DNA of 59,548 nt, the filler included, from Perkinsus olseni (lineage: Eukaryota): the NCBI GenBank assembly GCA_013115125.1. It is 3 parts of 3 records of this genome, joined end to end, with 100 filler letters (N's around TTAATTAATTAA, not from the genome) between each part and the next. Parts side by side here need not be neighbours in the genome. Positions count along the whole stretch, not along the records: positions 1 to 19,811 come from JABANN010000592.1; positions 19,912 to 39,696 come from JABANN010000593.1; positions 39,797 to 59,548 come from JABANN010000594.1. One strand, given 5' to 3'. A program made the position numbers and the translations under genes. Under the pieces are notes generated by a model that was not told the DNA's origin, did no database searches, and saw only the letters and a list, made by a program, of their open reading frames with translations. This document shows, piece by piece, positions 1-57,753 of the stretch (position 1 is its first letter; each line of letters begins with the position of its first letter).

Positions 1-2900
1 TCCACGTCGACTGACACAGGAAACGGCCATCATACGGTAACACAACCCCACCGAACGAGGCCTCGAACATTCGACGAGTGGCGACCGTCAGTCGGGTACG
101 ATTATGCCTCTCGCCCGAAAAGGTGGCCAGCAAATACTCCCGACCCTTTCAAGACAGATCGGGTTACCCGGGAGTGAGCCGACGACTAGAGCACTGTCGG
201 ACTAGCAGGGTGCCAAGGAAGTGCATCGATCAGCAGGCAGCGCACGGCTAGATGGCATTCCGGCAATTATTCAAACGGTGGCCCCCCTTTATACCGGGCT
301 GCTTCTACTACGTATATGCCCGCGGAGAGAGGTCCGATACACTCAGTGGGAGGTGAAAATAGTTACCGGAAACTTCTGGTTTTGGCAGAAAGGCCGCCCA
401 CTAAGACACGATCGGACTTTGACCGGCCTACCTCGCTTCAGTTCATCCCCATCATCCCCGCTGGCCGACAGTTGCACCGTGATGAGCCCATCAGGATTGT
501 ACTTGGTACTCAATGCCGAAGCCGAGACTGTGCCAGCCGGGCCGATTGGATGGACGAAGCTGACATGGTGCGGAAGGTCCCCGGTTCGATCCCTGGGCTC
601 CTCTTACATTTCTTCGCTCTTGCTCTTCACCACGACGAGAGGCGATGCCCGAGGGCCTGGTATGATGAAAAGTCCCTCCCTGTCATACGACCCGAGTCTA
701 GCGAAGGGCGATACCAATGCTGATGACGCCTGAATGGGAATGTCAAGTAGTCGGTCAGAGGTCCCCGGTTCAATTCCCAGGCGGCGCAATTTTCATCCCT
801 CACCCAGACAGTGGTGTCCTCCGTGGATGAGCTCATCTCCGCAACGAGTCCGCAGTTTTTATGCTCTACCATTTGGAAGGAGTACGGGAAACTCTCCTGC
901 AACGGTCGACCAGGGCAGGAGAACGATCGGTATCTACAACGAAAAATCGCCAAACAAAAATCCCTTCGCTCCGCCTACATCAATGGTGGTCTGTTCCTAA
1001 TGAGAACCACCAAGACAGGGAGACCGTCGATCCAGTGGAGCTGCACTGCTGCAACAACCGAGGTGGCATCGATAGGCGGCGGGGCTGGTGGAGGCGATAT
1101 CGGCCTGGAATAAAAGAGTTCACCAGAAGGCGTGAACACGAAGTCCGTTGATGAAAGGATCTCCATGAGTGCTGATAGTACAGTCGGCAGCCGTACGCGA
1201 CATCTCGAGAGGCCGAACAAGACATCAAGAATAGGGACCCGAAGTTATCCAGAGGAACTTATTGCATCGCGAATAGCGTACAGAATGATGGTCGAAAAAC
1301 TTCTCCGCTCCGCCGAGGTCTATTCTTCGGCGAATTAGAACTCACCTGGAAGTCGGATCCGTGATAGAGAGGAACAGATTGGTGGTCTTCACCCTAGGAT
1401 GCAACAGCGGCGGGGCTACCGCGATGCAGGCCACATCAAAGACCAGCACAGGAGGGGTGACGGAAATATCGTAACTAGAACGAAAGGGTCGGACGAGCTC
1501 TCGGCACTTGCCGTGACTCATTAGGCCCTTTGCGAAAGCATGTACGGTTCATTCCCAAGGCGTCCAGACTGGAACGAACATTCTGATCATTCTACCTTGC
1601 GCTGACTATGAACGACATTGGAGAAACATCCAACGTCCCTTCTATAATCTTCGCACTTACATCTTCACAGCGCTAGTCTCCTGTTCCACCAGAGTGAGGT
1701 ACTTCGTCATCTTACCACCACTGACATGAGCCAGCCCCCATAGTGGTGGCGGGGTAGCCGAAGCGCCTGGCTCGTCAGGGCAGCCGAGTCGGTCCGTTGG
1801 AATCTCCTTGAACGACCCGTCAATGTGATGGAATAAGCCCAACGTGCCTGGAGGGATAATGACAAGTGCAGGGATCGAACCCGGGATCCACCATCGTCCA
1901 TAACAGCCGCTACAAACTCGTCATTGAGACTAGCCTGTTTGCATGGCAGACCAAAGTGAAGGACCATCTCCGCCGAACACCCAATAGGTAGTCGACGAAC
2001 ACCCAATGGAGTCACCTAAGCAGCATAATTTCGTGGCGCAGTGACAACTTTCCAGTCAGCGTACCATATAAAATGAATCGCCCATCTTCCCAACGTCAAG
2101 TGGAGCTTCCGTGGTCCGATAGACCTCGTCAATAGACGACGTGAGGTCCAGCAGAACACAGCCTTCCTGTTGTCCCAGGCTCAGCACCTAAACCGAGCCA
2201 AGCTACTACCCCTCTTCCACCGCTTCCTCTCGGACACCTGCCTCACCCCATAGCGGTTATCGCCATCAACTACAGTCCATAAGGATATGCTTCGCAGTGA
2301 ATCCAACTCCAGTGCTGTTGAGATGGAGCCTGATCATGTCAGTAAAGATCCCAAAGTGCCCTCCAACCGTACAGCACAGTACTGTGGATACGGCAATTTA
2401 AATATCGTACCGCACCTTCAACAATTCACCACATTATTATCTTAATGTCCGATAAAAAGCTAATCGACGGTAGCAAACGGTTTGCGAGTAATTTCATTTC
2501 GCCCCACTCACACGAGTTTCCTTTACCCATACTAAAGTAGGTAGTACCAAAACTTCCACTACTCACAATTATTCCCAATGCGATGAGCCGAGGGAACCCT
2601 GCCTGAGCTCTTACATGTGAAGACCTCCTCAATAGGAACTTGTCCTTCCCGATGAACCACAGCTAACCGCCCGGTGGTCGACATACCGCACGACAAGACC
2701 AGCAAGTCCGATGGCAGATCCTCCGACGCTGGCAACGGAGCATCAACAGCACTCCCTTCCCGTCACGGCCTACCGGGCAGAGGGGCGGCATGCCTGACCA
2801 CTCCCAGACTTGGCAGCAGATGAGGATTCAGAGACCGGCACTTAACCGAAGGCACCACTTGACTGCTCATCTTCTCGCCAGCGTAACTGACAGGAGAGTT
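1..2900 (-). mobile_element. Possible heavily decayed retroelement/repeat mosaic
   Basis: No long ORF. Minus-strand fragments weakly resemble integrase (LFLSITDPTSR, LHWIDGLPVLVVLIRNRP) and RT (MHFLG) motifs, broken by stops. Motif order is not clean. Confidence 0.3.
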
Positions 2901-3519
2901 GCCGTAAAGACCACCGACTCGACGGAGATGAGCGCTGAAAATCCTAACTAATATTTATCATAATCAGTAATCTATCCGATGTCCAACAAGAAACTAATAT
3001 ACCCTTCATTTGGCATGAGAAATGAATTGAAAATCACTGTTGTTCATAGAACATCTTTCACAGTTTACAAACCCGATTTCGCTCCACTCCAATTTTACTA
3101 CTATGTCACTACCGTAGAGCATACATCACCAGGTCTATGCCGAAACTACAAGAATGAGCATCAACTACCAATGTTTGCAAATAAACACCCCCCTTCTGCG
3201 GTTCCTTATAATAATGAATGTCTACCGTCCGCGGAGCGGTCTCTCGAAGCAGCGTTCGCAACGAGAAATACAGACCTCGCTAAAAATGAGGAATAGAGTG
3301 AATCGTGATAAAGTCAAGAGCACACATAACGCTTTCTCTCCTCTGATAAAATATCAATACTACATCAACCACACCCGTATTACATCTCCATCAGCCTGCC
3401 GAGTAGTGGGTCATCCGACTCCTTCTGAACAGCCTCGAAAACACTCACACCTCCACAAGAATCCTCCGGGCTCTCCGGCATCGTCGACCTACATACAGCA
3501 CGATACGCGCGTACTACAG

Positions 3520-6380: not shown

Positions 6381-9300
6381 CACTACGTGAAAGCACCCCT
6401 GTTACCTGTCCATCTCTAAATATCAACAGCACTTGGTCCTGCTGCTCTCCAGCAGTATCATCCATGTCGCTGTCAACTGTAGCTCTGGGACGGCGGTACA
6501 CCACTGCGTCATGACACCGGCCAGAGAGAAGGGTCTCGCAAACGAACCTAGTAGTGTGATTCAGCGGACGAAGGACTCGATAGTAGTAAGGTAGAATAAT
6601 TTCTCCCTCAAGTTTTCCCTCCGTCGCCTATCATACTGAATTACACGTGGATCCATTCGGAACCGATGCGCAAGTTCGAACTACACATCGTTATCGCTCG
6701 CGTTTGAACTTTGCGGTCGGTATCTTCAACTTTACAGTTACGGGCTCAAGAGCAAATTCTGTAAGTGGTGATGGATTGGTGATATTTCGACTGATTTTAT
6801 TTTTTGAATGTACACTTTACATCAGTGAGTGAAATTGTCAAAGATGCTTCCCTTTCGGTGAGGAGGGAAGGTTACTCCGTAGGGCAGGTGGAGCAACCTT
6901 CGCTGTGCGCTATAAAGATACTCCCATTTCCCTACTACCTCAGCTCTCTAGTTGGTGTGATACGATACAGCCGAAGGAGACATCCACCGCATATGAGAAC
7001 GAGATCCTCTCCTTCACTGTCGCCATCCTCTTTGCTCTCCACATTCGCAATGAATCGGCCTTTTAACGCGAAATCAACGGTGGTTCGGGAGGAGCATTCA
7101 GTGTAGACTTGATGGGACATTAGACCACAGCCCAACTACGATTGGATTACTAGCAACAACGCGGCAACTCAGCATCATCAAACGCCGAATGATTATCATC
7201 ATCAACGGGGGGCGGTCCATCATAACGCATGTTGAGTTCCATTTCGTTTTCCGCGGAATGACCCAGAGCTTATCGCGCCGTCTCGTGAACCAGCTCTTTT
7301 TAACTCAAGAAGGGGGCACCGGCACGAGGTCTTTTGCGATTCAAGGTTGTAATGAGGGTGAATCTTCCGCGGTGATAACTGCACGTTACAGTCCAGGCGT
7401 TAAGGAAAAACCTGTTGATTGCAAATGTAAAGCCACATGTGGATGGAAGCCGAAATCCCAGGCTCAAATTTTAATGCGACTGAGGACCGTCATCCGCGCG
7501 GAATGGCTTTTATCAAAATAGCCGAAAACCCTTCAAAAAAGTTTTTTGAGTGGAAACGGAAATATACACGACTGACATGATAGATTATGCAGGTCACAAG
7601 CGAAACGTTTATCAATCTCAACCAGTCAAACAGACGGACAAAACAGCGCCAGATACAGCAATACCTGTTGTGAGGATTTTGTGGCGCGTGACTCATCTGT
7701 CCCTGTCTTTATCTTCTCGATAATCTTCGGGCGCGGCTCGGCCGTGCTGGCCCCACAGCCGACTAATCGGGCACCGGCGGTGCCCTAGGTACGAAGGTTG
7801 TGCAAGGTTGATAGGGAGGCCGATGTGCCGGACTATCAACGACGCTCCCAGAAACTGAAAACCGGCAGCCAGCACCGCCGGTCAGCAGCAGCAGGGAGCT
7901 GTGAGTCACAGCCTGCGACCTGCCGAGCACCCGAAGCCGTCTTCGAGTAGTATGTGGCGCGTGCGGACTCTGCAGCACGCAAGCTACACGGCATAAGGGC
8001 TCTGACCGCACTCGGCAGCCTGCTGGCAGCCCGCTGGCAAAAGGGCGAACTAGGGGCTCGTCACGGCGATGACATCGCCGAAGCGAGTCACAACTTTGAG
8101 ATCGCTGTGAACGTCTTGGCCATCCGGGCCAATCGATATTCGACGTCACAGGGCTCCTTCTCAAGCTTAGCCACAGTTTGGACTAGCGTCATCTCCCGCA
8201 CGGCGAGACGCGCAGCTGTCGATCAGTCGGCTTGGTAAGGAGCCGTTCGTCGCCTCTGCTCAGCTGTTCACCTCCACAGCCTGTGGAGCCCACAGTGTGG
8301 GCCACAGAAGCTGCCTGCTCAAGTTGGTAGGGTGGGTGTCTGGCTCAATCAGCGGTCAGTGACATCGCCATCCGTCAGTCATCACCCACCAAATATGGCC
8401 ACCCGCTCGGGTCGCGGTCTGCTGACCCAACAACAGGTAAACGGCAAGGATAACCCGCATGAGATTTCGAGAGGCCATCCGCGTAAATGGCTCATGATGT
8501 CATGGGACTTGCGACTACTACGACGGTCCTGTGACTCAGAATTCCTGAATCAGTAAACGCTCCTCAACGTCGTCTGGACTGGCTCCTTGTGGACCCGCTA
8601 GGAACGGTAGCTGCTTAGCGGCAGAAATGCATAATGCGAGCGAAATCCCCATGCTCAAGGTTGGGAGTGTGAACGGCGTGTGGCTTTGCTCTGACCTGTT
8701 TGCCACTCATTAGTGTTAGAGCCAGCAACGGGGCTGCAGCCGGTGTTTGACGTGATCTGGAAGTCAGTCGCCACTACGGCTCTGTAGGACACAATGCTGA
8801 TGCTATGCCACCCCGCTGTCTCTTCGTCTGTGCACGCATGCGCATCAGCCTGGCTGCTGTTGGTCGAACGCATGCGCGCCAGTCTTATTATTAGTTATGA
8901 TAGTACGTGCACTATTATCTGTTCTCTGTATCTCTCTATTCTGTCAAATTGACAGCTCGAGAAATTGAAACTTGGCTTTGGGCATCTATTTAGAGGAAGC
9001 ACCAGACACTGGTGACGGATTTTAGAGTTCTCGCACCGACTTCACGGTTCTACGCACGGATTAGATATGCCCGTTAGTAACGAGCCGTTACAAACTGGGG
9101 CATCCGAATTCACCTTCTCGAATTTGATAGCTCTTTTTCCAACCAAAAATTGGACAAGGTTTATTCTGCGCCTCAGCCAATGGTAACGTAGTTGTGTGAC
9201 AGAACTTCTGTCCCGTTGTATCCACGCGCTCGCGCGTACGTGCATGATCATCACCAGCACCGGCCGCACCATAACTGCTCTCTCCAGAATTGGCCTCGTT

Positions 9301-13005: not shown

Positions 13006-14459
13006 TAGTTCTCTGAAAGTCGTACGAGGCATGGTAATGAACATAACAGTAGCCTGGTAGTTATGAAAGGGCGTGGGAAAGATATGCCCGACGTCCCGAG
13101 CGTATAACACCATCACCTATAATTCAAGATCTATATCAGTACATATTGCGTATTTAACCTGTCCTGGATAGGGTATTTATATTCATCATCATTCATAGGG
13201 GCCCTTAGAGGTTGATATTAGATAGATTCACAACATACGGGTCCAGTATTATGAATAGTTGTCGCTAACTCTGTTGCGCTCATGACGAGCATCTCGCCTG
13301 TCCCTCCCATCGTAGCGAGGCTGCTGTTTTCATAGTTCTATCCGGAGTTGCAGTAGATTGTGTTCATGTCGGCTGCTGCTGCTGCCCCTCCACCTGCTGG
13401 TCATCATCACCACTGGCAGCACCCGTTGGAGACCGGGCCTCTAACAGTCTGTGGTAATACAGGGATTCGGGGCGATACGGGAAACCGGAGGGAAGAGGAT
13501 CTAGTCATTTCACGTAGGGCAAGCTCACCTCAATGAGCTAGCCATGCGTGATGTGAAAAATACGGTACTGATTATCCTACATCTTTCACCAACCTCGCCC
13601 CGCCCGCCCGTGGACAGCGTATCCGAATTGAGATGTGCATGACCACTCCACCAGTATTGCGTTGCACACTCTCGACGCTCCGCTTTCTGGTACCGATCTC
13701 AGAGGGCGCGCTTGCTCTCCTCATAAGGGCTGTGATAGGGGATAACTGATCTGCGTGGTTACACTACTTCGTCGACTCCTGATTAGTCACCTCTGAAATC
13801 ATCGAGAAGCAGTCATGTACTATCGAATGAACACTATTTGCCAATAGTGCCAACACTAACTATTATTATAATACTATTATTATCACCTACTATTTGCCAA
13901 TAATCTCACCGAAGCACGTCCTGGAGCGGTACTTCCATCAAAACTGATCGCATTCGAGGAGAGATGGTATCCTGAATGGTGTCATAAGATGCGCTTCACT
14001 TGAGACCTCTCTGGGAATCCGGGGTATCCCAACTTTCTCTAATCCCGTATACCCGGGAATGTGGACTCTCCTTCCCTTCTCCTCCTCCTTATCGCCCAGA
14101 ATGACCGAAAGGGCGCATGATTCTCCAATATCCGATGATGCCATGCTACCGGTGTTTGGGCTGAATGGCTCCCGAGTGTTGGCAAGATCCACCGCGTGTC
14201 ATGAGCTTCATTCCCGCGTATTTGATCTCACCTCCCTGCCCGGCGAAGCTTTGTTTCTCGACTGAAGAATAGTCTTCGATCGCGGGCCTGCTAGACGTTT
14301 CGGAAACGACAGCCTTTCGGTCCTCCTGTCCACCGACGGCCAATAGGGACCTTGTAGCTTTCCGGAGATACTCTCAATCGTCACAATTCATCATCTGCCT
14401 CTTCTCGTGTCGAATGATCGGGAATTTCGGCTCACCTTCTGTGCATGGATTAATCCAGA

Positions 14460-17400
14460 ATGCTGCGCGCAACCTTGGATACGATCGGCATTCCCGCAGG
14501 TTCTCGGCCGCCGTTATTGGAGCCCTTAGTGGCGGCAGTCTGTGATGCCGCGAACGAGGCTCTCGTAACAGATCAGGATCTGTCAGACCTAGAGGTCATC
14601 GCCTCCCACCAACGCAGTGCATACTATCAGCAGAATCTGTCTTCAGATTGAAGCTCGGCTCGGATTCTTAGCTCCCCATCGAGACTCGTACCATAGAGTG
14701 TTGTTGCCTATAACGTCAGAATGTATACTGCAAGAGCCTGACCATGGCAAGAACTGGCGGTGAGAGTGTCGATGAGTCTGGTAGTTGGGCGGATGTTTTT
14801 CGCTCGGGACAGATATGAGTTTCAAGCTTCGGTGATGCGAGAACAGTTCTTCGCGATACAGAAGCATTTGGAGAAGTTGGCGGCGGGGACTCCTGGACAA
14901 GTTCAGGGACATGTAGTGAGTTGGGTGTGGATGGTAGCTGGGTGGGGGCATCAGCGCCAAATCCGCGGCTTTGAACGTGCATTACGCATCAGCGTTGCTT
15001 TAGTAAAGAGGGAGAGAGTTCCCACTCGTCCCTTTGATAGGCGGCCTTGGAAGTATGTCGCTCATGGTACCTCTTGTAAGGCATGCAACCTAGTGGAACC
15101 GGGAGCGGTGTTATATTCGGACTCCTCCCACCCGGGTTCGTTCCCCGGCCTAAGCATCTCATTCTGTTAGGTTTTCCGAGTGAGAGATGTACGACGGCAA
15201 GTGACGACAACCGATGAGTTCTTCGAGTCCCCTAAGGACGGTCGGGTAAGTGAGCCGCCATCCCGTCGACGCCGCATCAATCAAACCAGATACGAGCAAG
15301 CTACGACAGCGACAGCTACAGTCTGGGAGATCGGACCCGACCGATCGAGATCATTCGGAAGGACCGTCTTAAGACGATCAACGTGTAATATCATACTGAG
15401 GGTATTGGACGTCGCTTTTTTCACTCATCTCCCGTTCTGCCGTTTCCCGCAGCACACCTATCACAACTCAGTTTATTGTCGCTCTTATTGCTCGCGGAAA
15501 GGGGTGCCCGAATTGCATAGGGTTCGCCATGCGTCTTCCAGTATCTGTGGAGCATTCTTGTTGTTGTAGAAGGTTGTTGTATCTTGTTGATACGTGGCCT
15601 GTGTAGGTTCAGCGGACATTACGACCCCACCTATTGTGATGAGGAGAAGTATCCTCTAGATTTGAGGATATCCGTGAACAGAGAGAACAAGTGTAGTTTT
15701 GGGGGCGGCATGGGAGATGAATGGGTGCTCGTAGTGAGCGGACAGTGGTGTTTCGCTTGCGAAATGGAAAACACGAAATCATGTATTTTCACTGGCTTTT
15801 TTCACATCACGGGGGGATCTTCAATTATGATAACTAAAGCGATCTCGTGATGACCTTCGGGGACCACGGTGGATCTTTCTTGAGAGCCGGTCGTGGGCTA
15901 GTGGGAGTATCGTAGCTAGCCAAAGCGTATAGACGGGATAATCCACTCTTGCATTCTCTGAAGTATCGAGGGGGAAAGCAGAGCCACCCAGCGTCACCTG
16001 GTAGCTAGGGAGGGATGCGGCAACGTGCTCCACCAATAGGGAGCAATGCTCTCTGCGTATGCACTAGCATCGGCAACGTGAGATTCACGAGGCAGTCGCT
16101 GAGCTCTGAGTTGGGAATATAATCGACCGAGGGCCAGTTCTTCACTCGGTCGTGTGGTCTTCAGTCTCATCAGTACCCTCTGATGTCTCCAAGTGCACTG
16201 GCAAACGTAACAAGACTCGCCACTCGTACATCTTCAAGGCCTGGCAGGTTGACCTTACCGAGGTTATAGCACAAGGGAAGCAGGGAGAATGGTAACATGC
16301 TCGGGTCGGAACGGGAATCGTCATAAGCTTGCCCTCTTAGTGCGTCGATGTCTAGTGAGATGTGAATGATGACTACCAATTAAAAATACCGCTTTACTGG
16401 GTATTACGGGACTAATCGGTATTATGGATTTTAAAATACCAGTATTGAAAATACCACTAATACCACTCTACTAAATGGGTATTTACTATCCATAATACTG
16501 CCAATACACATGATAGCTTTTGGTCATATCCGATGGCCCTCTAATCTGCATGAACTTTCTGACGGAATCTGCTGCATAATCGATAAGAATGATGATATCG
16601 TCATCGATGGTAGTCTCATGGATCATCTCTGCATTAACCTCGCCCCCTCAACTTTTGCTACTTTCCTGCATAAAGTGGCTTCCTCCGATTCGAGGCCCCG
16701 CACAACGCCACTGCTGTCTCGGATGGCGTTATTGGTGTGTTCGTGTACAGGTCGAGCTACGAGGTTGAGGTGGAGTTGAAGAAGGATCTCATCGCCGAGC
16801 AGTTGAAACGCCTAAGGCTGGGCAAGAACCATGCCGTGTATGAAATTCTCACTGGTAGCCTGACTGCCACACGAGACGTTGGTTGGAATTTCGTGGCGCG
16901 CGGTCATGCTGTAGATTTTATATACTGCGTGCGTGATTTGGCGTGGATGTTCGGCGATGCATATACAGCGAGTGGCGGTCAGCAACAGTGGAACAAGAGT
17001 GGCCAGCGGAAGAGGTGAGTGCGCTTGTGTATATTGCAATTACATACCAACTTTTTCCCAACTCTCAGGAACCGCGGTGACGTGAGCTCGAACGACATAG
17101 ATTTCACGATGTGGTTGGAGCCTGAGGAAGTAGTGAGGGTGCTCTATAGGCCTCTGTCGAATTCCAAAAGCCCTCCAAGGATTTTTGGCTCAACGTCTCA
17201 TGATGAGAGCCCTCCTCATGAAACTCAGGAGAGGCAGCAGGCTATCGAGCACCCGGATTACAGCTCAGGTCGTTCCGTCAGTAGCTTCACCGTCGTCAGG
17301 TACAGCAGCGGTACCTCAAGCGGGTCGCTCCAGTGTTCCCGATAATCGGCGATTACTGTTTTACCATTGCCGAGGAGATCCGCTCACCAAAGGCAGCGTC

Positions 17401-18382
17401 CGCCGAGGAGCCTCCATCGTCTCAGCCTCCCAGTAAGCCCCCACGCTGGTCCGCGGCGTGAAATGATCTCCCTGTTCAACCGGCAGGTGACAAGGAACAG
17501 CCGAAAACTGATGAACCCCCAGCGACAGTGGAAAAGGAAGAGAATGCTCCGGGTGAGTCGGTCTCGCCTCCCTAGTCCACCAGTTTGCTGTTGTAGGCGT
17601 GAGGGTGTCGCACGGTGGGCCACTCCCTGGTGATTGAGTGTAGGGTCTCGTGGCCCGGCTATTCGGGCTGGGTTTCATGTTGTGCTTTTCAGTAGTGCAT
17701 CCAGAGCCGGCCAAGGACGTTAACATGGTGGACGCGGATGAACCTTTAGCGATGCCGGATGACCTCGAAGGAGCGCTGACGATGGATGGAATTGAAGGAG
17801 AGGAAGCAGCAGCGGTGGAAGAGACGCACCATCCGAGTAGGGAATGATACGTGTGATCGGCCGAGCAGCATTGAGCTTGTCTAGGCCCCCTTGGCAGGAC
17901 GCCTGAGCACTCACCGTTCTCCGCAGCACCAGCAGCAACAGCAACAGTTGGCAATGCCAGTACTGTGACAGAGGTTGAGGGTGATGGAGGTGGGGGATGG
18001 ACGAATCTCACACACGGTGGAGTGCTCTGTAGCGCCAGCTGTTGTCATCTCAGCTCCCGTGCAGCCCAACGGTCTCACTGATACCCCGCCTAAGGCCCCG
18101 CTCCCCGTGCCTAGACCTGAGCAGAAGCCTGATGGTGCACAGGAGAATGAGGGTAAAAAATGCAGTGACGGCGGATTGAACCCCGGACCTCATGTTGCTT
18201 CTTCAGATGGTGGATCCTCATCCTCCAGCTCGCGCGGCTCGGACAGCGACTCGGACTCTGATGAATCAGGGTCGGACTCTGGCAGCGAATCATCCTCGAG
18301 CGGCTCGGACTCCGACAGCAGCAGCGGCAGTAGCAGCAGCGATGGCGAGAGTGTTGCCGGAGGGAACGAGGCTGCTACGTGA
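14460..18382 (+). pseudogene. Disrupted multi-exon hypothetical gene(s) with a low-complexity Ser/Asp tail
   Basis: Coding-like pieces with GT-AG introns (e.g. ~17015-17068) but in-frame stops and frame changes. Cys pairs CKAC and WCFAC are present. Ends in SDSDSDS.. at 18382. May be more than one locus. Confidence 0.4.
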
Positions 18383-20484: not shown

Positions 20485-22037
20485 ATGCTTGCCACCTGCA
20501 CCTCGTCGTTCATTACTCGTTACTTCGCTACAGCCGCTCCCAAGGCCGCTGCAAGTGCCCTTCCCTTCGCCAACCTCGCCAAGGCTCAGGCAGCTCTTAC
20601 CAAACACGAGGATAAACTGAAGAAGGCTCAACACGACCTCCTGTTGAAGTATGCGTCGCTGGAAAACAACAGGAGGGAGAGGGAACAGAATGTTAAAGAC
20701 GCGGAGAAAAAGTAATAACTTCAGGCCGGATGATTGCCGCCGTTGGAAGTCAGCGGCTGACAATGGCCGTCAATAGGGTTAGCACTTAAGCGCTGTAATG
20801 ATCGACTATAGTAATGTTGCAGTATGAATCACCCTAGTTCATCGAGGATGTCCGAGTAAACGTAGGGAAACAGGTCTTGTATCACCCACACTGTCCTCAA
20901 CCAGCCCTGCGTCAAAGAATATTTCAGCCTCTTTCTTACAAGGTTAACGTCTTCGGTAGCTTGAGTGTTATGCGGTTCTTTTCTGTATAGTAGAACTGAA
21001 TTGAAGCGTCGCTGTCATGTACCGAGGAGCCTGAGCTCCGCTGTATTCTTCAATTCTTTCCAGAGTATTTCTGTTTTTCCGTGGATTCTGGTTATCAGAA
21101 TTGTATGGTGCAATGATGTTGTGTCCAATATTGTCGTTCTTCTCCATTCATTTATCACGCGGACGGCTGGCATGATGAGCCCGACGCTGCCTTCCGCAAT
21201 TTCACTTCAAGCGGATGGCTCGTCTCAACCAATCAAGGGTGTACTTCTCGTCATTCCGGAAGCATTCGCTGCTAATAAAAGTGAACACTGACAAAGCAAA
21301 GGTCATCCCTTTGCTCCGTCAAAGGAATACTTGAATACTGTGATTCTCGTCATGCCATAGCTTCCGTGCAAAGTTCGCTGCCCTTTTATTCGGTTGTCGC
21401 TAGCTCCTCGGGCTTCTCGAATTCTACAGGCGAAAAAACGCCTCGTGCTGAGATACTTTTCAAAACGTTACTGATTGTTACGTGCCGCTACGATGCTCAT
21501 GAAATGACGATACCTGCCGCCTGCCGATGCTGAAGAATTGTCGTACCCGACGTGGATGTACGGTTTTCCTTCCTACCATTTCTAACGCATCGTGTGTTTT
21601 ATGACTAGATGTTGATCGTGATTTGTTCTCTGGGATTCGTGATTTTTCGTCGAAATTCTTTCCTCAGGCATGTGAAGGTTTTCGCGGCCAGCATAGTGGA
21701 TGTCGCCACCAAGATGAACGAAGCGGGCGATTTGGCAGACCAGCTGGCGAGCAAAGAGGAGGCTTCGGAGAAATTGAAAAGTGTCGCTGAGGGCGTTTCG
21801 ATCGCCAGAGACTTCCTAGTGAGAAGTGTGATGTTGCAAAAGTACCAGATCGAGCCGTTTACTGTGGAGAAAGGAGAAAAATACGATGTCGCGCGCCACG
21901 AAATTGCCCTTGAGAGTGCGGTGAAGCAAGTTAAGAAGGGCGAGGATGCGTTCGTTGATGGGGTCTCGAAGGAGGGATGGAAAATGGGCGAGGACGTGCT
22001 GAGGAAGGCCCGGGTGAATCTGACGCAAAAGCAGTGA
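20485..22037 (+). CDS. grpE: GrpE-like nucleotide exchange factor, probably mitochondrial; 2 exons, intron 20712-21667
   Basis: Presequence-like N-terminus, LLKYASLENNRRE coiled coil, GEKYDVARHE and EGWKMGEDVLRKARV, matching GrpE motifs GxxFDPxxHE and GYxxxxRVLRxAxV. Confidence 0.85.
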
Positions 22038-22429: not shown

Positions 22430-25400
22430 ATGCAGCAGGGTGGTGCCATGCCCGCTACGTCTAAGCGGAACTACAAGAAGGCCTTGGAGTTGGCCAAGAA
22501 TGCAGCACCGTTGTTGAAGGGGTAGTAGGGTGGTGCGCAGATGGCAAAAATGATGTTCCCGATATTTTTCTCGGGAGTTTTTCACTAAAATTTGTGTGGG
22601 CGATGACGGAATTTGGAAACCGGGAAAGGCAAGTTCAGGTTGAATTGTTGCTAATTGTTAATACCAAGGGTGTGGGTAGATTTCGTTGATTGTTCGTAAG
22701 CAGCGTAGATGTCGTTAGCTGTGAGTGTGGCTTCAATCAGCGGCATACTGTTTTTGATCCCTTTACGAATTCCCGTTGTGAAGTGGTTAGGATGGTATCG
22801 ACCGCCGTTTTCATGGGAGATTTTTCCCCGCCTCAAGACTATCAGTTTTGGGGTTGCACGTTAGTTAAAGCAACACATCGTCACATTGCATGGTCTCGAT
22901 CACAATTTTTCCATCAGATCTTCGACCTCGTCAGCCGACCGTGAGCAGGGCATCGCGTTGCTCACTGAAGCCATCACGCTTGCTCCGGATAAAGCAGCGT
23001 TCTATTCACTCCGAGGGAAGGCCTTTGCCCACGCTGGGATGTTCCAACGGTGAGTCGCGATCGTTATTTGGGACGCGACCATTGGGGCGCACTTGTTATG
23101 AGAATAAACGCCAGCAAATTGCTGGCAGCAATAAGTAGAATCGTTCTAAATTTCTGTCACCGCGCCGCGATATTGTCTTGTTTTTTCAGGGCGCTATTCG
23201 ACTACTCCATGACGATCCGATTGGAGCCAACTGCTGCGAAGCACTACGGATGCCGGGCTGAATGCTTTAAAAAGTAGAGGGCATTTTGAATGAAAAATAG
23301 AGGAAAAAAAGGATGGAGAGAAACCAGTTTATCTGTCTGTAGCTTTCAAAAATGGGAAAAAAGTCCTAGCGGTTTTCTTCGACAGTTGGGCTCTTTAACT
23401 TTTCTAGCATGTAAACGGTAAAAAATACGGTTTTGTGGGAAGAAGGATTCCCATGCGCGTATGATCTTTCTGTTCCTGGCGATGAGAGAAACCAGTAACA
23501 GGCCAGCGTTTCGTCTCCACTCAGACTTGGCAGAGTTGCTGATTGCTTGAAAGATCATACTGAGGCGGTACGGCACGAGAAAGGGGGTGGACGATATATA
23601 TTTGAGAGGGCTATGGTACTATGGGGGAACAGGAGTTGCATTTGGTGTGGTATGATATAGTATCTGACCACATATCTAGATATAATATCTTCGAAAGCGC
23701 TGTCCGACCATAGCCGGAGACCAAGCGCGACCAGCTGCCAATATAATTCCAATAATTGGAATTTGACATTTCATGAATCTAATGAATTGTATTAACCGAA
23801 ATTCACAACAGGTTCTATCGTTGAATACTGTGCTAGGTCGATGCAAGCATTTTCCAACGATTGTCTTACAATCGATCACGCGATCGATTTGCTCGCCTTG
23901 TAGGGTCAAAGAAGAATTCGGCTATGTTGACTGTTCCTGTTGATGTACGCACATGTTTTCCACGTTTGCAGATATATTTTGAAGTTGGCGATTATTCGGC
24001 TGCAGCCCAGGACATCACTACGGCGCTATCGAAAGAGTGCGCTAACCCCTTCAGGGCGTATTTATGTAGGGGTATATGCCATCGCCATAACAAGGTGAGG
24101 AGATCTTGGCCACTCCGCCGATCTTGAATTTCTTCAAAATTCGAGTCGCGCCCTCTCGCACATCCGTGTGCGTGCCACGCAGAGGTTGCCTGTGCTGAGC
24201 ATATTGACCAACTAAAGGCGTTCTATATGCGCTCACCAGCGGGTGTCTACCAAAACTTCATGAGGAGAGACATCATCACTTGGTTCTGAGCGGGGGGAAG
24301 CCGTCAACGACTCCATCCAGGCCCAGGTCTGGAACTTTGCGTAGCTCGTGTTTGAGTGCATGGAGGGAGGACTGAACCGTCCGTAGGAGGCTCAGAGACG
24401 CCGGTGGGCATCTTCTCCGTGTTCCCTCCGCAGCGTTCTCGCACACTGCGTACGGCGAGTGCAGCATCTCATAAGGGATGAAGCGAATGCGCTGCATATT
24501 GGTGACCTCTACGACCCTCGTGTCACCGACTGAACGCCTTCTCACCCGGCACAGACCGATCAGAGACAGCCGATGCAGCTCCTACTAATATCCTCCTGGC
24601 GGAGGAGTCCCTGGATGCCAGTGAGATTACAGGCTGTAACTCACAGCCATAGTTGAAAAGCTCGGATGGGCCCTACGAGCCTTGGCTTCATGCTCAAAGT
24701 ACAGGAACGACGACTCAATCCGGTGGAGGAGAGGGGGTCTGACTATATCACGATTCGCAGTTGACTAGTCCTGTCCACGGCTGAGAAAAATGTGCAGCGA
24801 AGCCTATTTTGCTATGTCCCGGAGATTTATGTTGGGGAAAAGCTCATCAGCGGTTGATCGGGACCTGGAGAGTAGCGGGGACTCATGGTTGGGATATAAG
24901 CACTTCCCGATATAGTTGCGTACCAGTACTCGTCTTTTAAGTAATGTCGTCTCCCTGGGAGCACTCCCCTGTACTCCCTCGGTCCTGATCGTTAAATGTG
25001 AAGGTTGACTACAGAAAGGGGTGCCAGGAGAAGACAGACTGGAACACACGTGGCAGCACCGAGTTCCTGGATGACGTGTTTGGCATCAATGTCTTTAGCG
25101 GCATCCATCAGTTCTACGGCTCAGTCCGCATCAGGAACCGCTGATAGTATCGGACACGAACTATCGCTCATCGACCCTGTCAACCAGCTGCAATCATTGC
25201 CGCGATAGAGAATTGCGATTACTGTTCCGTCCCCGGCTTTTTTGACTTAACTCTTCAAGTGTATTTGAAATCAGTCTCACTTGAAATATGGGAACTGAAT
25301 TCTGAAAATTGACAGGTTTGTGTAATACTAACATGATCAACACAAAGCTTATTGTTAATGGCATTTTGCACGAAGCTCTCAATTTGATAGCAAGGTGATG

Positions 25401-28400
25401 ATTTTTCAGGATATCGATCAAAGTGTTGATGACTTGAACAAAGCGATCGAGCTGAATTCCGCGGATACTGATGCCCATGACCATCTTGGATTGTCTCTGG
25501 TGAGTGACTGTTGATCGCGAAATGGATAGACGCGGATTGAACGAACTACGGTTTTTGTCACACGCCTCGGGGTTTCTATGTTTCGTGTATTCAGTTACTT
25601 TCACGTGATTATAAAGGGGCGTTGGGAGCTTTTACGAAGGCGGTTGTTGGTTGCACTACACCGGCGGAAGATGACAGGAAGGCGAGGTGAGCACAACGTA
25701 GATGACAATGGACTTCTGCTGTGAAACGCTATTTTTTAATGTATAACATGACACATTACTGGCTTAACGTTGGCTAGGCGTTAAGAGCAGTCGCCACTAG
25801 AGTGTTATTGCATGTTGAGGCGAAGTGCTACGACTACACGTCATGTTGTTGAAGTTTTATACAGCTTCCCGGTGATAGTTCGATTTATGGTCCATGGGTC
25901 GGTGCGTGGCGTGGTGGTTATTCTCTGTTGTGGTCTGTGAACACTCTCCAGGTTGTCCGGCGTCATCATTATATTGGAGATTCGGTTGTCCGTCCTTGGG
26001 CTCGGGAGGTCGCGCGCCACGAAATTATTTTGTTTTAAAGGTACTTGAACCACCGGGGATTGGTGCAGCATCAGTTGAAGGAATACGATAAGGCGCTGGA
26101 GGACTACACGGCGAGCCTTCGATTGAACCCGCATGAGGACAACACGTATTTTAACAGGTGAGAACTTTTCACTGCGCCACGAAAATATTTGGGCTGATAA
26201 GATGAGTGAACCTCGTCTTGCTCAGGGGGAACACATACTGTTTATTGGACGAGTACGAGAAAGCGATCGAGGACTATGACAAGGCGATGGCGATTGATCC
26301 GAAAAATGCCGAGTGAGTTTGCCTCAATTTCAGCGAGTGAAAAATTATGAATTTTTTTCTAAATTTTCTGGTGAGTTCGCCTGAAGGAGGGCCCGAATTT
26401 TGTAGAGACTAACCTTCTTTCGGCGTGACTGTGCAATGTAGATCGTTTTGGGACTGCTTTGCGGTCCGGAGACTGTTGGCCACTGCTTGATTGCTTGAAG
26501 TAGATCGAATGAGGGTACGAGCCTGAGTTGACCAGGCTCGTTGTGGCTTTCTTTGACTGAGCGCGTCAGCAGTGAGGGTCGGGATGAGGAGGACACGGCG
26601 TAGTCGTATGGACTTTATCCGTCAGTTTGTGTTCGGATTAGATGCTGTTCGAATGGTAGAGTTATCATAAGCGTTGTCTAGAGCAGGACTGTTGCGGGGG
26701 CGTGAGCGTGATTAGCATTCTGAAAATACTAGCGGACAGCTCTACTACCCGAAACTAACTGTACTCGTGAAACAACTTTGCATCAAACTGGAAATTATAG
26801 ACGAGTATTGTGGGAGGAAGTGAAGTTTAAGTAGCATGTTGAAAAATTGAAGAGAAGAGAAGAAAAAAAATCGGAAAAAAGTACGGAAAAACGGAGAGTA
26901 AAGAAAAAAAAGTACACACAAAAGCTGAAAGTGTGGAAAGGTTTTTCTGTAGCTTGCAAAGTTTACTTTGCACGACTCACCTTTCGTCTCAATGATGAGC
27001 GTGTTCGGGTTGATGTTGATTTACCAGATCTAGGGAAGCGTTTTATTTCTGTCAGGTACAGCCACTATAAGGGGTTAGCTCACGAGAACGCTGGCAGGAC
27101 CGAGGAGGCCATTGAGAGCTTCCAACTCGTTTTGGAGAAAGATGATACCTACTTGGCCGCGGAGTTGCATCTTGGCATGATGTGAGTGCTGGAGAGGGTT
27201 GACAAATTTTCCGGAATTTTCTGGGAGATTTCTGAGGCGAGAGATATTTTTACTCGTGTTGCGAAACCAATCGTCGTTTTAGCCTACTCACAGTTTTATG
27301 AATATCGGTTTGACTGTGATGGGGCTCATGCGTGTCCTGTTTGCTATGGACACAAAAGAACGAGCCGAGCGAAGTGTAGGCTGCAAAATTTTCCCGTCCA
27401 ATTCTCGCAAGAAAGATCCAAAAATCGCTGTTGTTTATTTTGAGTTTTTCTGGTGGATTTTTTGGTCGACCTCTTTTGGCGTATCTTTTGACTTTGTAAA
27501 AAGTCATCTCAATGTGCTAGGTATCGTAGAAGTCGTAAATTCGAGGACGCTCTGGCCTGCTTGATGGACGACCGTTTCGAGGCGGTCACTGACAAGCGAA
27601 TGCTGGGGCAAGTTTATGAGACTCGAGGCCTGATTTGTGGGGACATGGACAGGTGAAACTCGGCAGCGTCATTTGCGCACTGGAAAGATTCCTCATGGTT
27701 TGTTCATGCTCAGTCTAGAGGAATCTTTGGGTTATCTGGATAGGGCGATAGAAGTGGTGGAATCGGCGAGAAGAGAAGAAGATCCAGAATTGAAAGATGC
27801 GCTAGACGGAGCGTTGGGGGAGTATCTTTTCCATCGAGGTGTGGTGAGGTCGAAGCTCAAAAGATACGAAGAAGCTCTGGCGGACTTGCATGAGTAAGCC
27901 TGCCACAGCCTGGGCAGTGAGGATTTGGGGATGGCGTGGTATCATACCACACCATCACCAAATCCTCACAAATCTGGTATGTAGGCATGCGTTAGGTCGT
28001 TGAAGTTGTCGCCGAAGGACGCAGCGGCAGTGCTCAATGAGAGGGGTATGTGCTGGAAATATCTGGGCAACCTTCCCGAGGCGATATCTGACTTGTCAGC
28101 TGCCGTTGAGAAATCTGGTAAGTGAGCAAGATTGCAAGATTTCACCTCAACCTCGCTTTGTTCAGGAGGAACAGTACTGCAGTACCTGTGTAATCGTGCC
28201 CAGTGTTTCCTAGAGTTCGGTCTCTTCACCCGTGCGGACGATGACTTGTCCAAGGCGATTTCTATTGGTGGTACAGAGAGCCGAGGCAATTGTCTTTACT
28301 ACCGTCGTGGTGAGAGGGAGGGCCGTGACCGCGCGCCACGACATTCGGGGTGCTCTTGACCAACGTAGGTGTCGCCCGTTTCGTACAGCAGCGGTTCGAG

Positions 28401-30180
28401 GAGTCCATCAAAGACTTGCGGAAGGCGGTGCACTTGGACCCCCCACCGGAAGCCTCGATGGCAGATCTTTATTACCACCTTGGGCTCTGCGAGGTGAGTT
28501 GGAGGGGAGCTGTTATTAGTTCTACTCGAGAAATATTGAGAACAGTTGCGCGAGTTGTGGTATGTTGTTGGCATTGAGAAAATTCCACCGGAGGCGCATG
28601 TTCTTGACACTGCGCTCGCTTTGGAGAATGTCCTTCCTCGGTTTGGTGATGATTGGAAATTGGATTTTCGAGCGGTATGCTGCTGATAGCGACCTTCAGA
28701 AGAAACGCCTTCAAGTTGCACCATTCGAAGCATAGCATTTTTGAGGTTGATTTTCAATCGTTTGCTTTTGGTCTAGGACGAATATTATGATCGATTTCAG
28801 GCGAATGTTGGGACTAGGCCGCAGCGAGCTCTACACGCATTTACGAAAGCGATAAAGTGTCTGCCGAGTGAGGGGCCACCGAAGCCTCATTACATCCACG
28901 AGATGGCTAAGGCCTTGCAGATGTGTGGTGAACATGAGAAGGCCCTCAGAAATTTCAGTGAGGTAGGCGGAGGGAACTGGCACTTGTTCGAAGCACAACT
29001 GAGGGAGTAGGGGTGTTGGAATCTTGCACACTTGAAATTCCTTAAGAAGTGAATATTTTCTGATAGGAATTCCGTTGTCAGCTAGCGTCGGCGAGAGCTG
29101 CGGCATGAACCACGTTCGCAGGGCCGCTGTGAGGTGCCCGTGCTCGACTCTTTGCTGCTTCGCTCAGCCTAGTGATGCATCATTATCAGGTCCTCCGATG
29201 GCAGCCGTTGAACGCGCGGGCGATGTTCCGGAGGGCGTTTAGTTTTAAAGCGCTGAAGATGTTTGACGAGGCGGCAGAGGACTTCGAAGCAGCTCGGGAA
29301 CTGGAGCCCAACGACATGCGATTTGTGGTGAACTACAAGAAGATAGCCGACTACGAGGCGGTCACGTTGGGGCCCGCGGGATACGAGGTCAGTTTGATGC
29401 TCCCTCTGCACAATGAACGCGTGATATATGCAAAAATATAGATTATAGAGAGATTATATGCTCGCCCGAATCTCGTTTTTTTGAGAAATTAAAAAATTTA
29501 CCAATATTTACTCACGTGTTTTTCCTCGCCAAAATTTTCTCGCGTTTTTTCATTCTAAAATTGACTCACGTTTTTTTGTTTTTTACGCTGAAATTTACTC
29601 ACGCTTTTCTGTTTTTTCGCTAAGATTTGCTCACTTTTTTTGTTTTTTATGCTGAAATTTACTCACGTGTTTGTATTATTCGTAGAAATTTAACATACAG
29701 CACAAATCAGACGGTTCTTGTGAAGGAGCGAAGCCTTCCTCGAGAATCTTCCGAAGCCGGTCCTAAAAGCGAATACAGCCTCACTTCGCTAGTGCTGTAC
29801 TAGTGCAATCACTGGAACTCGACAGTATTTAGTGATTCTGGCGGGTCCCTTAGTAGTAAACATCACGATGAGAAAGGGCACTACTAGAGCTAGAGGTCAT
29901 GTGGATTGTGGCCCACACAGTCACAACTAGAGTTCCCTGGCATCGACTGGGGTCTACTTTCTCCGGTACGACCAAGTTGAAGTTGATGTTATGATTTGTT
30001 CTGGTGGCGCTTTGATCGAGCTGTTCACGGTGTAGTTGGCTCTCGCCTCGCTCTCAGGACCAGATACCCTACAGGGATGCCAAGGCTTCGGCGGTGCCGA
30101 GTTTGGATCGTGGGTTGGCCAAGTATAATGAGCTCGTGGCGGAGGTTGATGACGACGATGACGATGATGATGATCTGTGA
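22430..30180 (+). CDS. Tetratricopeptide-repeat protein, ~16 or more exons
   Basis: Exons encode successive TPRs: AFYSLRGKAF, YLNHRGLVQHQLKEYDKALEDY, YFNRGNTYCLLDEYEKAIEDY, AMFRRAFSFKALKMFDEAAEDF. Probable last exon 30058-30180 ends DDDDDDL*. Confidence 0.88.
29500..29673 (+). repeat. Degenerate ~30 bp T-rich tandem repeat, about 6 units, in the last TPR intron
   Basis: Recurring aaatttactcacg(t/c)ttttt units. Confidence 0.75.
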
Positions 30181-31477: not shown

Positions 31478-31552
31478 ATCCTGGAGCGGTGGCGGGCTAG
31501 GCGTAAGGGCCTAGGGATAGTATTCGACTCAGTGGATACGGTGATAGAAGAA

Positions 31553-31592
<40 letters not shown>

Positions 31593-57289: not shown

Positions 57290-57563
57290 TATAGTGGAAA
57301 AAACTGCATGGAATCTTGTAAAGATAAATCTCGTGGACCCAATAGATTCTGAAACTTTAATTTCACTTGTTCTCATCAACCCGATCATCACGAGCTTCAC
57401 TGCGTGTTCAACAGAACTCTCCTGAGCTTCGAAAGCGATCCTTGGATGGTCTTGAACTCGGTCCCCTAAATTCATTAGAGGTCCATTGACCACTCTCTCA
57501 GAAATGGTTGCACTTGAGCTAGACAAATCAATAACAAGTCGAATACGCATGCGCAGTCTGGGT

Positions 57564-57753
57564 TTCCGTCACGCGCCACGAAATTCCGTGATTGCCGACG
57601 CCGGTCGCCTTTTCCTGTGACTTAGAGTGGAACATGAAGATCACAGAGGTGCCCGGATGCGGGCTAGGCTAGGGAAGATCCTTAGCCCTTGAAGGGACAT
57701 CAACAACAAATACGAGGACGGGTTGAGAAAATTCCGTCACGCGCCACGAAATT
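57564..57753 (+). promoter_or_regulatory. Duplicated TTCCGTCACGCGCCACGAAATT in the divergent intergenic region
   Basis: Identical 22-mers at 57564-57585 and 57732-57753, between head-to-head genes. A regulatory role is inferred only. Confidence 0.5.

Follow-up and report, generated by a model that had tools for sequence, protein, structure and literature searches.

The window, a stretch of 59,548 nucleotides of Perkinsus olseni DNA, consists of three contigs delimited by N runs at 19812-19911 and 39697-39796. Among named matches, the best are to P. olseni, with 97-100% on some exons. Perkinsus, which forms a sister lineage to the dinoflagellates, is a major cause of disease in oysters and clams; to our knowledge, almost nothing is known about gene control or chromosome organisation in this genus. 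Gene models in the window were obtained by homology mapping, codon-usage exon finding and GTGAG strand density being too weak. The genes and regions that concern us are:

13414..17440, plus strand: gene for the beta subunit of the mRNA-capping enzyme (RNA triphosphatase, PF02940), with copy 3 of the word described below in one of its 11 mapped introns
21668-22034, plus strand: exon 2 of the GrpE gene, with a Pfam GrpE match; RNA contigs cross copy 4 without a gap
22919..30147, plus strand: TPR-repeat gene, mapped by local tblastn of the P. marinus protein P0122, splice refinement and Pfam TPR matches
57551..57797 (247 bp), no strand assigned: divergent intergenic (promoter) region, with copies 9 and 10 in tandem, 168 bp apart

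The ATG at 57798, to the right of the divergent region, is the start of a DCC1-like thiol-disulfide oxidoreductase gene; PF04134 is present in its homologues P0132 and P0133, whose alignment begins at their residue 1. The ATG at 57550, to the left, begins a minus-strand ORF of 475 aa.

These genes and regions have in common a near-invariant DNA word of 18 bases that recurs about once per 6 kb across the window. Its core is the 12-mer GCGCCACGAAAT, and the full unit of about 18-19 bp can be written as GTC[A/G]C, followed by 0-1 base and the 13-mer GCGCCACGAAATT. There are ten copies, divided 3, 5 and 2 among the three contigs:

2027..2045, minus strand: copy 1, GTCACT, exact 12-mer, T
7675..7692, minus strand: copy 2, GTCAC, one-mismatch 12-mer (CACAAAAT), then C
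16887..16905, minus strand: copy 3, GACCGC, exact 12-mer, T; antisense in an intron of the capping-enzyme gene, 9 nt short of its 3' splice site
21888..21905, plus strand: copy 4, GTCGC, exact 12-mer, T; sense in GrpE exon 2, where it encodes VARHEI
23156..23174, plus strand: copy 5, degenerate, GTCACC, GCGCCGCGATAT, T; sense in the 140-nt TPR-gene intron 23050-23189, 15 nt short of its 3' splice site
26009..26026, plus strand: copy 6, GTCGC, exact 12-mer, T; sense in the 354-nt TPR-gene intron 25687-26040, 14 nt short of its 3' splice site
26168..26186, plus strand: copy 7, TTCACT, one-mismatch 12-mer (GAAAA), T; sense in TPR-gene intron 26158-26225 (68 nt)
28327..28345, plus strand: copy 8, GACCGC, one-mismatch 12-mer (GACAT), T; sense in TPR-gene intron 28310-28368 (59 nt)
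57568..57585, plus strand: copy 9, GTCAC, exact 12-mer, T; intergenic, 23 nt from the ATG at 57550 and 213 nt upstream of that at 57798
57736..57753, plus strand: copy 10, GTCAC, exact 12-mer, T; 45 nt upstream of the ATG at 57798

Copies 9 and 10 have nine further upstream bases in common. Copy 1 may sit in a putative GT..AG interval of 49 nt on the minus strand. No ORF with a homologue was found near copy 1, and a Pfam search of the window's 296 stop-to-stop ORFs of at least 70 aa found no family across 1-9700, the region of copies 1 and 2.

Nine of the copies had been listed in the original prediction, and their coordinates, strands and mismatch counts were all reproduced exactly. The tenth, a degenerate copy of GCGCCACGAAATT at 23162-23174(+), has the typical GTCAC prefix. 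The strong iteration on all three contigs that was claimed then is also borne out: the six exact and three one-mismatch copies of GCGCCACGAAAT compare with 0.18 expected (100 dinucleotide-preserving shuffles), an excess of about 50-fold inside the window, and none of the 100 shuffles contained nine copies or more. Nor is this an artefact of choosing the motif after the fact, since in an unbiased count of all k-mers in the window, only a GAT/ATC microsatellite outranks the word and its sub-words among the 9- to 14-mers. For the 13-mer, copies with 0, 1, 2 and 3 mismatches number 6, 2, 3 and 12, against 0.05, 0.05, 0.75 and 12.9 expected from 20 block shuffles; the excess is thus limited to near-perfect copies.

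Across the ten copies, the 13 core positions are invariant or nearly so, and the information content falls to background within 5-7 bases on either side of the core. The word carries about 25-30 bits of information. The GTCAC, GTCGC or GACCGC said to precede it and the T said to follow it recur as described, the T in nine of ten copies. One reading of the alignment is a pair of imperfect GYCAC half-sites in direct orientation at fixed spacing, GTCAC or GTCGC and then GCCAC 7-8 bp downstream, followed by GAAATT. The downstream half-site is invariant, and the upstream one comes in four distinct classes. In each of three pairs of copies, 5-9 additional upstream bases are shared. The word is non-palindromic, and CpG is not depleted (observed/expected = 0.97).

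The word had been placed in exons, introns and intergenic DNA, and all three are represented, exons by one true coding exon. Five of the ten copies lie in homology-verified introns, four of them in the sense orientation in four of the 13 mapped introns of the TPR-repeat gene (copies 5-8) and one antisense in the capping-enzyme gene. This last intron, at 16855-16914, is 60 nt long, in frame and bounded by GT..AG, and its 20 codons are skipped by all six aligned orthologues; copy 3, formerly assigned to a coding-like exon (NFVAR), is therefore intronic. The assignment of copy 4 to the GrpE reading frame was correct, as the Pfam match and the orthologues agree. Tolerance in coding DNA, as originally proposed, would have a single example, the GrpE copy, the second copy claimed being intronic. 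Copy 4 matches all 18 bases of the word, six third-codon positions included. The peptide is VARHEI in P. marinus and VTRQEI in P. chesapeaki, with no difference in length, and the change in P. chesapeaki falls at the A/G-variable position of the word itself. Since all 18 bases match and the peptide is kept in both species, the GrpE copy appears to be old yet still perfect.

Both orientations relative to genes occur, with six sense and one antisense among the seven copies that have a transcript context. The word is found in five of 28 verified introns, at 9, 14, 15, 23 and 39 nt from the 3' splice site, and the proximity to that site is non-significant over these five copies (Fisher P=0.15). 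Introns make up 70% and exons 30% of the length of the three mapped genes, which hold five intronic copies and one exonic copy (P=0.42 for at least five intronic). An apparent enrichment in introns (five of ten copies in 8,657 nt of verified introns) was dropped because introns were mapped mainly in copy-bearing genes, where this P of 0.42 applies. Copies lie within 300 nt upstream of two of the five supported gene starts, both in the one shared intergenic region; there is none upstream of the ATGs at 20485, 33288 or 37999(-), even at three mismatches. At 29 nt beyond copy 10 there is a pyrimidine-rich AG, which precedes the start codon by 16 nt. On a larger scale, the copies are clustered, with a largest copy-free gap of 29,140 of 59,348 nt (P=0.014), a stretch that holds expressed, intron-bearing genes. 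They are also co-oriented within each contig over 6-15 kb (P=0.008).

The flanks of the copies were compared in 180 pairs, with a mean score of 8.7 against 8.9 for 580 random control pairs, in agreement with the earlier statement that the wider flanks are unrelated. The single high-scoring pair is paralogous TPR coding sequence, and nothing is alignable between copies beyond about 25 nt. No separate inverted copy with up to three mismatches lies near any of the ten, the sole inverted match, at 57730, overlapping copy 10; no target-site duplication was noticed when the junctions were read. A transposon or MITE remnant, for which the flanks had been set as the test beforehand, was rejected in the absence of alignable flanks and of an inverted partner. 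An introner element was rejected as well, as the five motif-bearing introns range from 59 to 354 nt and have only the core in common. Only the putative 49-nt interval at copy 1 and the verified intron at copy 3 have ends that are alike, though the word is inverted between them.

The word is neither a general promoter, nor a branch-point, nor a spliced-leader signal. As a general splice signal or branch point it would be present in only five of 28 verified introns, once antisense, at distances of 9-39 nt, and as a core promoter element at only two of five supported starts, both in one intergenic region. The Perkinsus leader exon (PMC9399869) has nothing in common with it. The Dada transposons of P. 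marinus, which target tRNA genes, have no relation to the word, and no tRNA was found in the window. A likeness, as we take it to be, to the 3' part of U6 snRNA fits copy 9 only, and Rfam finds no U6; a heat-shock-element reading of GAAATT fits copy 10 only. There is no Rfam match at gathering scores in the window, nor any at the copies at E up to 1, and the copies have no consistent RNA fold or hairpin (z-scores -2.4 to +1.6, with differing structures).

The word is present in contigs from several independent sequencing runs, one of them from a diverged relative, and the copies are therefore real DNA. At position 28342, the mismatch in copy 8, every covering contig reads the consensus A; these contigs come from the three runs with depth at that position, X7, X8 and the relative X9. 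One X7 contig has three joints at which the word, at 19-20 nt, is repeated after an interval of 7-8 letters. At copies 4, 6 and 7, side matches of 20-21 nt and loose ends in the runs lead to other loci that have the word and a few flanking bases. Such contigs of other loci are the only hints at the genome-wide occurrence that was originally proposed.

Several known systems invite comparison. HIP1 of cyanobacteria is palindromic and the uptake sequences (DUS) of Neisseria and Haemophilus serve transformation; all are prokaryotic, and we know of no such system in any eukaryote. Like them, the word is short, exact, hugely over-represented and able to sit inside genes. However, it is non-palindromic and clustered and has one verified coding copy, and its abundance is known within the window. 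The sites of budding-yeast general regulatory factors and cell-cycle boxes are promoter-proximal and of high copy number. These sites and that of E2F presumably resemble the word in their letters, with a GC-rich, CGCG-containing core beside an A/T run, and they share its high copy number across many unrelated genes, whereas the word is found at two of five gene starts only, is mostly intragenic, and is longer and far less degenerate. In Cryptosporidium parvum, the E2F site is reported to be the most over-represented upstream motif (PMC4117751). Introners, found in Micromonas, Aureococcus and the dinoflagellate relative Amoebophrya, likewise place a repeat in many short spliceosomal introns, in either orientation. 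They are alike along the whole intron, with inverted repeats at both ends and direct repeats at the boundaries (PMC7789003). The word differs in having a common core of only 18-25 nt, ordinary GT..AG sites, and exonic and intergenic copies as well.

The SPE2 element of Plasmodium falciparum is bipartite, with two imperfect 6-bp repeats 4 bp apart, and its binding needs both adjacent AP2 domains of PfSIP2; it occurs in arrays and as single sites (PMC2829057). SPE2 and the word are alike in that each pairs two imperfect half-sites in direct orientation, the short spacing between them being fixed apart from an occasional extra base. The likeness extends to the high sequence specificity of SPE2 and its hundreds of sites in arrays and singly, set against ten copies of the word in the window. 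Plasmodium and Perkinsus belong to the same superphylum, and ApiAP2-type domains are present in P. marinus (PMC4117751). However, the sequences are unrelated, and the sites of SPE2 are concentrated upstream of var genes, within subtelomeric heterochromatin, whereas the word lies in the introns, one exon and one promoter of ordinary genes, with arrays inferred from one contig.

The best explanation, which we hold tentatively, is that the word is the site of a sequence-specific DNA-binding protein with two modules, resembling SPE2 and PfSIP2. The double-stranded word would be a cis-element, and a tandem-AP2-type factor would be a candidate reader family in this lineage. Selection for binding would fix nearly every position, and copies would be tolerated where they do little harm, mostly in introns, in one divergent promoter and in one permissive exon (VARHEI of GrpE). 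Binding might serve gene regulation, a chromatin boundary or another chromosomal mark. We infer the reader, its two modules and the upkeep of copies by selection rather than by copying. The original prediction had also suggested a chromatin-protein site, among other marks; a real, high-information signal in both orientations has stood up, and such a protein site is also the best reading here. The analogy to HIP1 and uptake sequences appears weak.

Several observations count for the binding site. The excess of near-perfect copies only, with its sharp drop in information, is one of these, and sense and antisense placement in verified genes fits a reader of double-stranded DNA better than one of RNA. 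Others are the tandem placement of copies 9 and 10, at 23 and 45 nt from start codons, within a single divergent promoter of 247 bp, the old yet perfect GrpE copy, and the consensus base found in X7, X8 and X9 contigs at the mismatch of copy 8. The recurrence in X7 with 7-8-nt spacers is the kind of site array known for protein-binding motifs, and unalignable flanks, the lack of an inverted partner and the lack of a fold count in the same direction, as do the SPE2 precedent within the superphylum and the ApiAP2-type domains of P. marinus. However, six exact copies out of ten are unusually uniform for a family of transcription-factor sites, and the four upstream classes and shared extra bases look more like descent from source copies than independent origin. 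Clustering and co-orientation are not predicted by a simple orientation-free binding site, and copies at only two of five gene starts, with most deep inside genes, also count against it. The ratio of six sense to one antisense may leave room for a role at the RNA level.

That the word spreads by copying is somewhat unlikely. A self-copying or templated unit of 20-26 nt, from a short-period tandem array or an introner-like element, would be pasted in as break-repair filler or by ectopic gene conversion and survive mainly where it is spliced out. The discrete upstream sub-families, the copy pairs with extra bases in common, the head-to-tail words in the X7 contig, the side matches at copies 4, 6 and 7, the clustering and the like ends of the copy 1 interval and the copy 3 intron would all suit such a unit, as would the 60-nt motif-bearing intron missing from all six aligned orthologous proteins. 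On the other hand, copies cannot be aligned beyond about 25 nt and have no terminal inverted repeat, inverted partner or noticed target-site duplication, while the introners of Amoebophrya have inverted repeats of 8-20 nt at both ends as well as direct repeats (PMC7789003). A length of 18-25 nt is far below any described transposon or introner, the proportion of intronic copies is what the intron content predicts, and the GrpE copy, with no length difference and a peptide common to three species, points to substitution or an ancient event rather than a recent insertion. If the word did spread in this way, no mobile or templated unit described in a eukaryote would be shorter, and its case would bear on the origin of short introns.

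Action at the level of RNA is improbable. Here, an RNA-binding protein would recognise the word in pre-mRNA and so influence cis-splicing, spliced-leader trans-splicing or intron retention in some genes. Perkinsus mRNAs are trans-spliced (PMC9399869). Of seven copies, six are sense, namely those in the GrpE exon, in four TPR introns and in the 5' flank of the DCC1-like gene, although this bias is weak, with four from one gene. The pyrimidine tract of both long introns directly follows the word, which ends 14-15 nt short of the 3' splice site, and copy 10 has its AG shortly before the start codon. However, 3' proximity is non-significant, most verified introns lack the word, copy 3 is antisense in a verified intron, and no RNA fold is conserved. 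More doubtful still is a genomic word comparable to HIP1 or uptake sequences, targeted or generated as a side effect by a system for repair, modification or recombination, at high copy number everywhere, including coding DNA, and with no regulatory role at single sites. The three unrelated contigs do carry the word in exonic, intronic and intergenic positions, its exonic copy is perfect, and its co-orientation recalls the polar words of bacteria. Against this stand the single verified coding copy, the clustering with an empty 29-kb stretch of expressed genes, the lack of a palindrome and of CpG depletion, and no evidence of an uptake or modification system; the literature searches on Perkinsus yielded none. 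Chance, compositional bias or an assembly or adapter artefact has next to no probability. The only point in its favour is that the motif was first picked by eye, and it is countered by the shuffles and the k-mer ranking, by the independent runs with their diverged relative, and by the word's in-frame position within a conserved GrpE peptide. By contrast, metagenome and viral contigs have one exact copy per locus, at no fewer than 120 and at 37 loci, respectively.

A broader version of the binding-site reading is conceivable but improbable. The word would be a genus-wide chromosomal punctuation mark, with on the order of ten thousand near-identical 18-bp sites, kept perfect by selection or a conversion-like drive in introns, in promoters and even in codons, polar over tens of kb, and recognised by a two-module protein of its own, whose task would be the organisation of chromatin or replication and not of individual genes. 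In a eukaryote, such a mark would parallel bacterial words like HIP1, Chi or uptake sequences. For the binding site as proposed above, an 18-bp word every few kb offers a ready-made handle on the predicted reader protein, and a map of its sites could tell promoters, chromatin boundaries, origins or splice decisions apart. No description of the word, on either strand, was found in the main text of openly available papers, including those on Perkinsus promoters and motifs, introners, over-represented k-mers, introns, splice sites and branch points.

The matches in other DNA came from searches of viral contigs with a 16-mer and of metagenome contigs with an 18-mer. The viral loci lie on 37 contigs with a single copy each, giving no viral or mobile source. 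The metagenome loci, with a mean G+C of 0.635, include no Perkinsus-like multi-copy contig among the matches listed; these matches are due to chance and are uninformative on habitat. Among the same matches listed, one locus (L082) has a second copy at one mismatch inside an unrelated tandem repeat, and another (L109) matches the window over 23 nt in an otherwise unrelated contig.

In the window, which consists of three contigs of about 19.8 kb with N spacers between them (19812-19911 and 39697-39796), the 12-mer GCGCCACGAAAT occurs in six exact and three one-mismatch copies. Dinucleotide-preserving shuffles gave an expectation of 0.18, and nine or more copies were seen in none of 100 shuffles. 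The coordinates and strands of all nine copies in the original prediction were reproduced exactly. Because the word had been picked there after it was seen, all k-mers were ranked without prior choice, and the word and its sub-words were the top 9- to 14-mers behind a GAT/ATC microsatellite. CpG is not depleted (observed/expected 0.97), and the word itself contains three CpGs. With the trailing T included, matches to the resulting 13-mer with zero, one, two and three mismatches numbered 6, 2, 3 and 12, compared with 0.05, 0.05, 0.75 and 12.9 in 20 block shuffles, so that only near-perfect copies are in excess. An extra degenerate copy, with the typical prefix, is present at 23162.

When the ten copies are aligned in motif orientation, there is little or no variation at the 13 core positions, which are preceded by 5–6 bases: GTCAC, GTCGC, GACCGC, or GTCAC with one base added. 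Outside these positions, information is at background, and the unit is therefore about 18–19 bp long. One way to read it is as a direct pair of imperfect GYCAC half-sites, 7–8 bp apart, with GAAATT after them. Four discrete classes of upstream half can be told apart, and in three pairs of copies a further 5–9 upstream bases are shared. An artefactual origin is ruled out by the presence of the word in several independent sequencing runs, and at the mismatch position of copy 28333 the consensus base is found in every covering contig of the runs X7, X8 and X9, the last from a diverged relative. Chance or artefact can thus be taken as excluded; the word is clearly real and testable.

Genes were placed by homology, and the exons of the TPR gene by local tblastn with splice refinement.

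Copies of the word (start and strand) and the features that hold them
2028 (-) and 7676 (-): DNA without an established gene
16855-16914 (+): capping-enzyme intron 9, 60 nt, GT..AG
16888 (-): inside the capping-enzyme intron, antisense
20485-20711 and 21668-22034 (+): GrpE exons; GT..AG joint in three runs, Pfam GrpE match
21893 (+): GrpE exon 2, sense, encoding VARHEI
23162, 26014, 26174 and 28333 (+): introns of 140, 354, 68 and 59 nt, respectively, of the TPR gene, all sense
57573 and 57741 (+): 168 bp apart, same orientation, in the 247-bp gap between ATG 57550 and ATG 57798

Five copies are thus in verified introns (four sense, one antisense), one in a verified exon and two in a divergent promoter, with two unassigned. 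Copies are present in 4 of the 13 mapped TPR-gene introns. ATG 57550 starts a minus-strand ORF of 475 aa, and ATG 57798 is confirmed as a true start by homologues with a DCC1-like domain (PF04134), which are aligned from their own first residue. For a 504-aa POT transporter ORF, the best named matches come from Perkinsus olseni, P. marinus and P. chesapeaki.

The distribution is uneven. Five copies lie within 6.5 kb, followed by 29,140 of the 59,348 nt without a copy (P = 0.014), a stretch that contains expressed, intron-bearing genes. Within each contig the copies (3, 5 and 2) all share the same strand (P = 0.008), although copy 16888 is antisense to its own gene. The results cover the 59-kb window and the sequencing-run contigs that match it. 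Among the matches listed, a contig of X7 repeats the 19–20-nt word after 7–8 other letters at three joints, a hint of an array with a period of 26–27 bp; loose ends and short side matches at 21893, 26014 and 26174 likewise hint at further loci with the same word.

The claim that one copy lies inside the GrpE reading frame is borne out by the Pfam match, by RNA contigs that cross copy 21893 unspliced and by the orthologues: the peptide is VARHEI in the P. marinus homologue and VTRQEI in that of P. chesapeaki, with equal lengths. A second copy, 16888, had also been placed in a coding-like exon. It does lie within a plus-strand open frame, that of an mRNA-capping-enzyme beta gene (PF02940), several exons of which are 97–100% identical to P. 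olseni proteins, but its coding status did not hold up, as exactly 20 codons around it are skipped in all six orthologues compared with the window. The intron is in frame and stop-free; its retention would lengthen the protein by 20 residues without truncation. A putative intron, the 49-nt GT..AG interval 2016-2064(-) around copy 2028, matches it in 10 of the first 13 bases and has a similar end (ATGCTG..TAG), yet the 18-mer inside is in the opposite orientation.

Neighboring genes are fused in the public annotations of relatives (window 20485-30147 and 9788-17440). The P. marinus protein P0122 combines GrpE with a TPR part that continues past it, and the P. olseni protein P0125 combines a TIR-like ORF with the capping enzyme. 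The GrpE frame ends with a stop at 22035, and X7 depth falls from about 200–290 to about 13 past 22551, which makes annotation error the probable source of these fusions. The fused annotations do show that gene order is conserved.

The word fails the defining tests of transposon remnants, introners, splice signals, core promoter elements, spliced-leader relicts and RNA families. The wider flanks are unrelated, as originally proposed: in 180 flank comparisons, the mean best local alignment was 8.7, compared with 8.9 in 580 random control pairs, with a single high-scoring pair that consists of paralogous TPR coding sequence. None of the copies is accompanied by a separate inverted partner; the one inverted match overlaps copy 57741 itself. 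At gathering scores Rfam returned no match, and even at E-values up to 1 it returned none at the copies, and the RNA folds of the ten copy contexts are dissimilar (z-scores −2.4 to +1.6). The word is in only 5 of 28 verified introns, one of them antisense, and within 300 nt of only two of five supported gene starts. It shows no enrichment in introns beyond their share of the sequence: in the three mapped genes, 70% of the length is intronic, as are five of six copies (P = 0.42). A spliced-leader relict is ruled out by comparison with the leader sequence in PMC9399869.

The word is dispersed, high in information and protein-site-like; its distribution is unusual in being polar and mostly intragenic. 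The most likely reading, one we put somewhat short of even, is that it serves as a site for a protein that binds specific sequences through two DNA-binding modules. Such a protein would recognize the word on double-stranded DNA, and selection would keep it near-invariant. Several observations favor this reading: very high information is restricted to about 18 bp, copies stand in either orientation to genes, a short divergent promoter contains two of them, the copy within codons is old but perfect, X7 gives a hint of an array, and neither an RNA fold nor mobile-element anatomy is seen. Against it, six of ten copies are exact, more uniformity than is usual for a factor site, most copies are deep within genes, and the sub-families and clustering resemble descent from source copies. 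A copied mini-unit, such as individual repeats of a short-period array inserted by repair or conversion, would account for these last two features and for the array, but the GrpE copy is indel-free across three species and no element anatomy is found, and we consider this origin rather unlikely.

An RNA-level element that affects splicing or trans-splicing is less probable still. The sense bias of 6:1 and the position of the word directly upstream of two pyrimidine tracts point that way, and in the two long introns the word ends 14–15 nt upstream of the 3′ splice site. However, one intronic copy is antisense, and the position test for the five intronic copies combined was not significant (P = 0.15). 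Strand polarity is consistent with a HIP1-like driven word, yet a single coding copy supports it, and we regard this as the most doubtful of these alternatives.

The nearest described system to such a protein site is SPE2/PfSIP2 of Plasmodium. SPE2 is a pair of imperfect 6-bp repeats with 4 bp between them that needs both adjacent AP2 domains, and it occurs in arrays and as single sites (PMC2829057). ApiAP2-type domains are present in P. marinus (PMC4117751). The word would work most like a bipartite AP2-type site with a putative reader. It is not filed under SPE2, since its sequence and genomic setting differ. A full-text literature search, with supplements and subscription journals outside its scope, returned no published description of the word.

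Other repeats are present in the window. Another dispersed repeat, 40 nt or longer, starting AAATTGCTCTGGGG and unrelated to the 12-mer, has three to four copies on contig 3, one of them inverted and two separated by 41 nt:
39824-39870: AAATTGCTCTGGGG repeat
54638-54700 (-): AAATTGCTCTGGGG repeat
55092-55180: AAATTGCTCTGGGG repeat

No tRNAs were found in the window. A tRNA-like T-arm/B-box string, GGTTCGATCC, at about 1860-1895(-) drew no tRNA call from ARAGORN or Rfam and may represent a degenerate tRNA gene or an element derived from a tRNA.

The 8-mer TCAACCTC (15 copies) and the 7-mer CATCTCA (21 copies) are over-frequent. They stand 8–12 nt upstream of the AG acceptor in two verified introns and in several unverified places, and may represent a local branch-point-region consensus:
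28147: example in intron 28118-28165
27505: example in intron 27182-27520

The segments 43076-43160 and 43489-43575, at a distance of 413 nt, have 60 or more identical bases in common around CATCTCA and TCAACCTC and so indicate that a local duplication took place.
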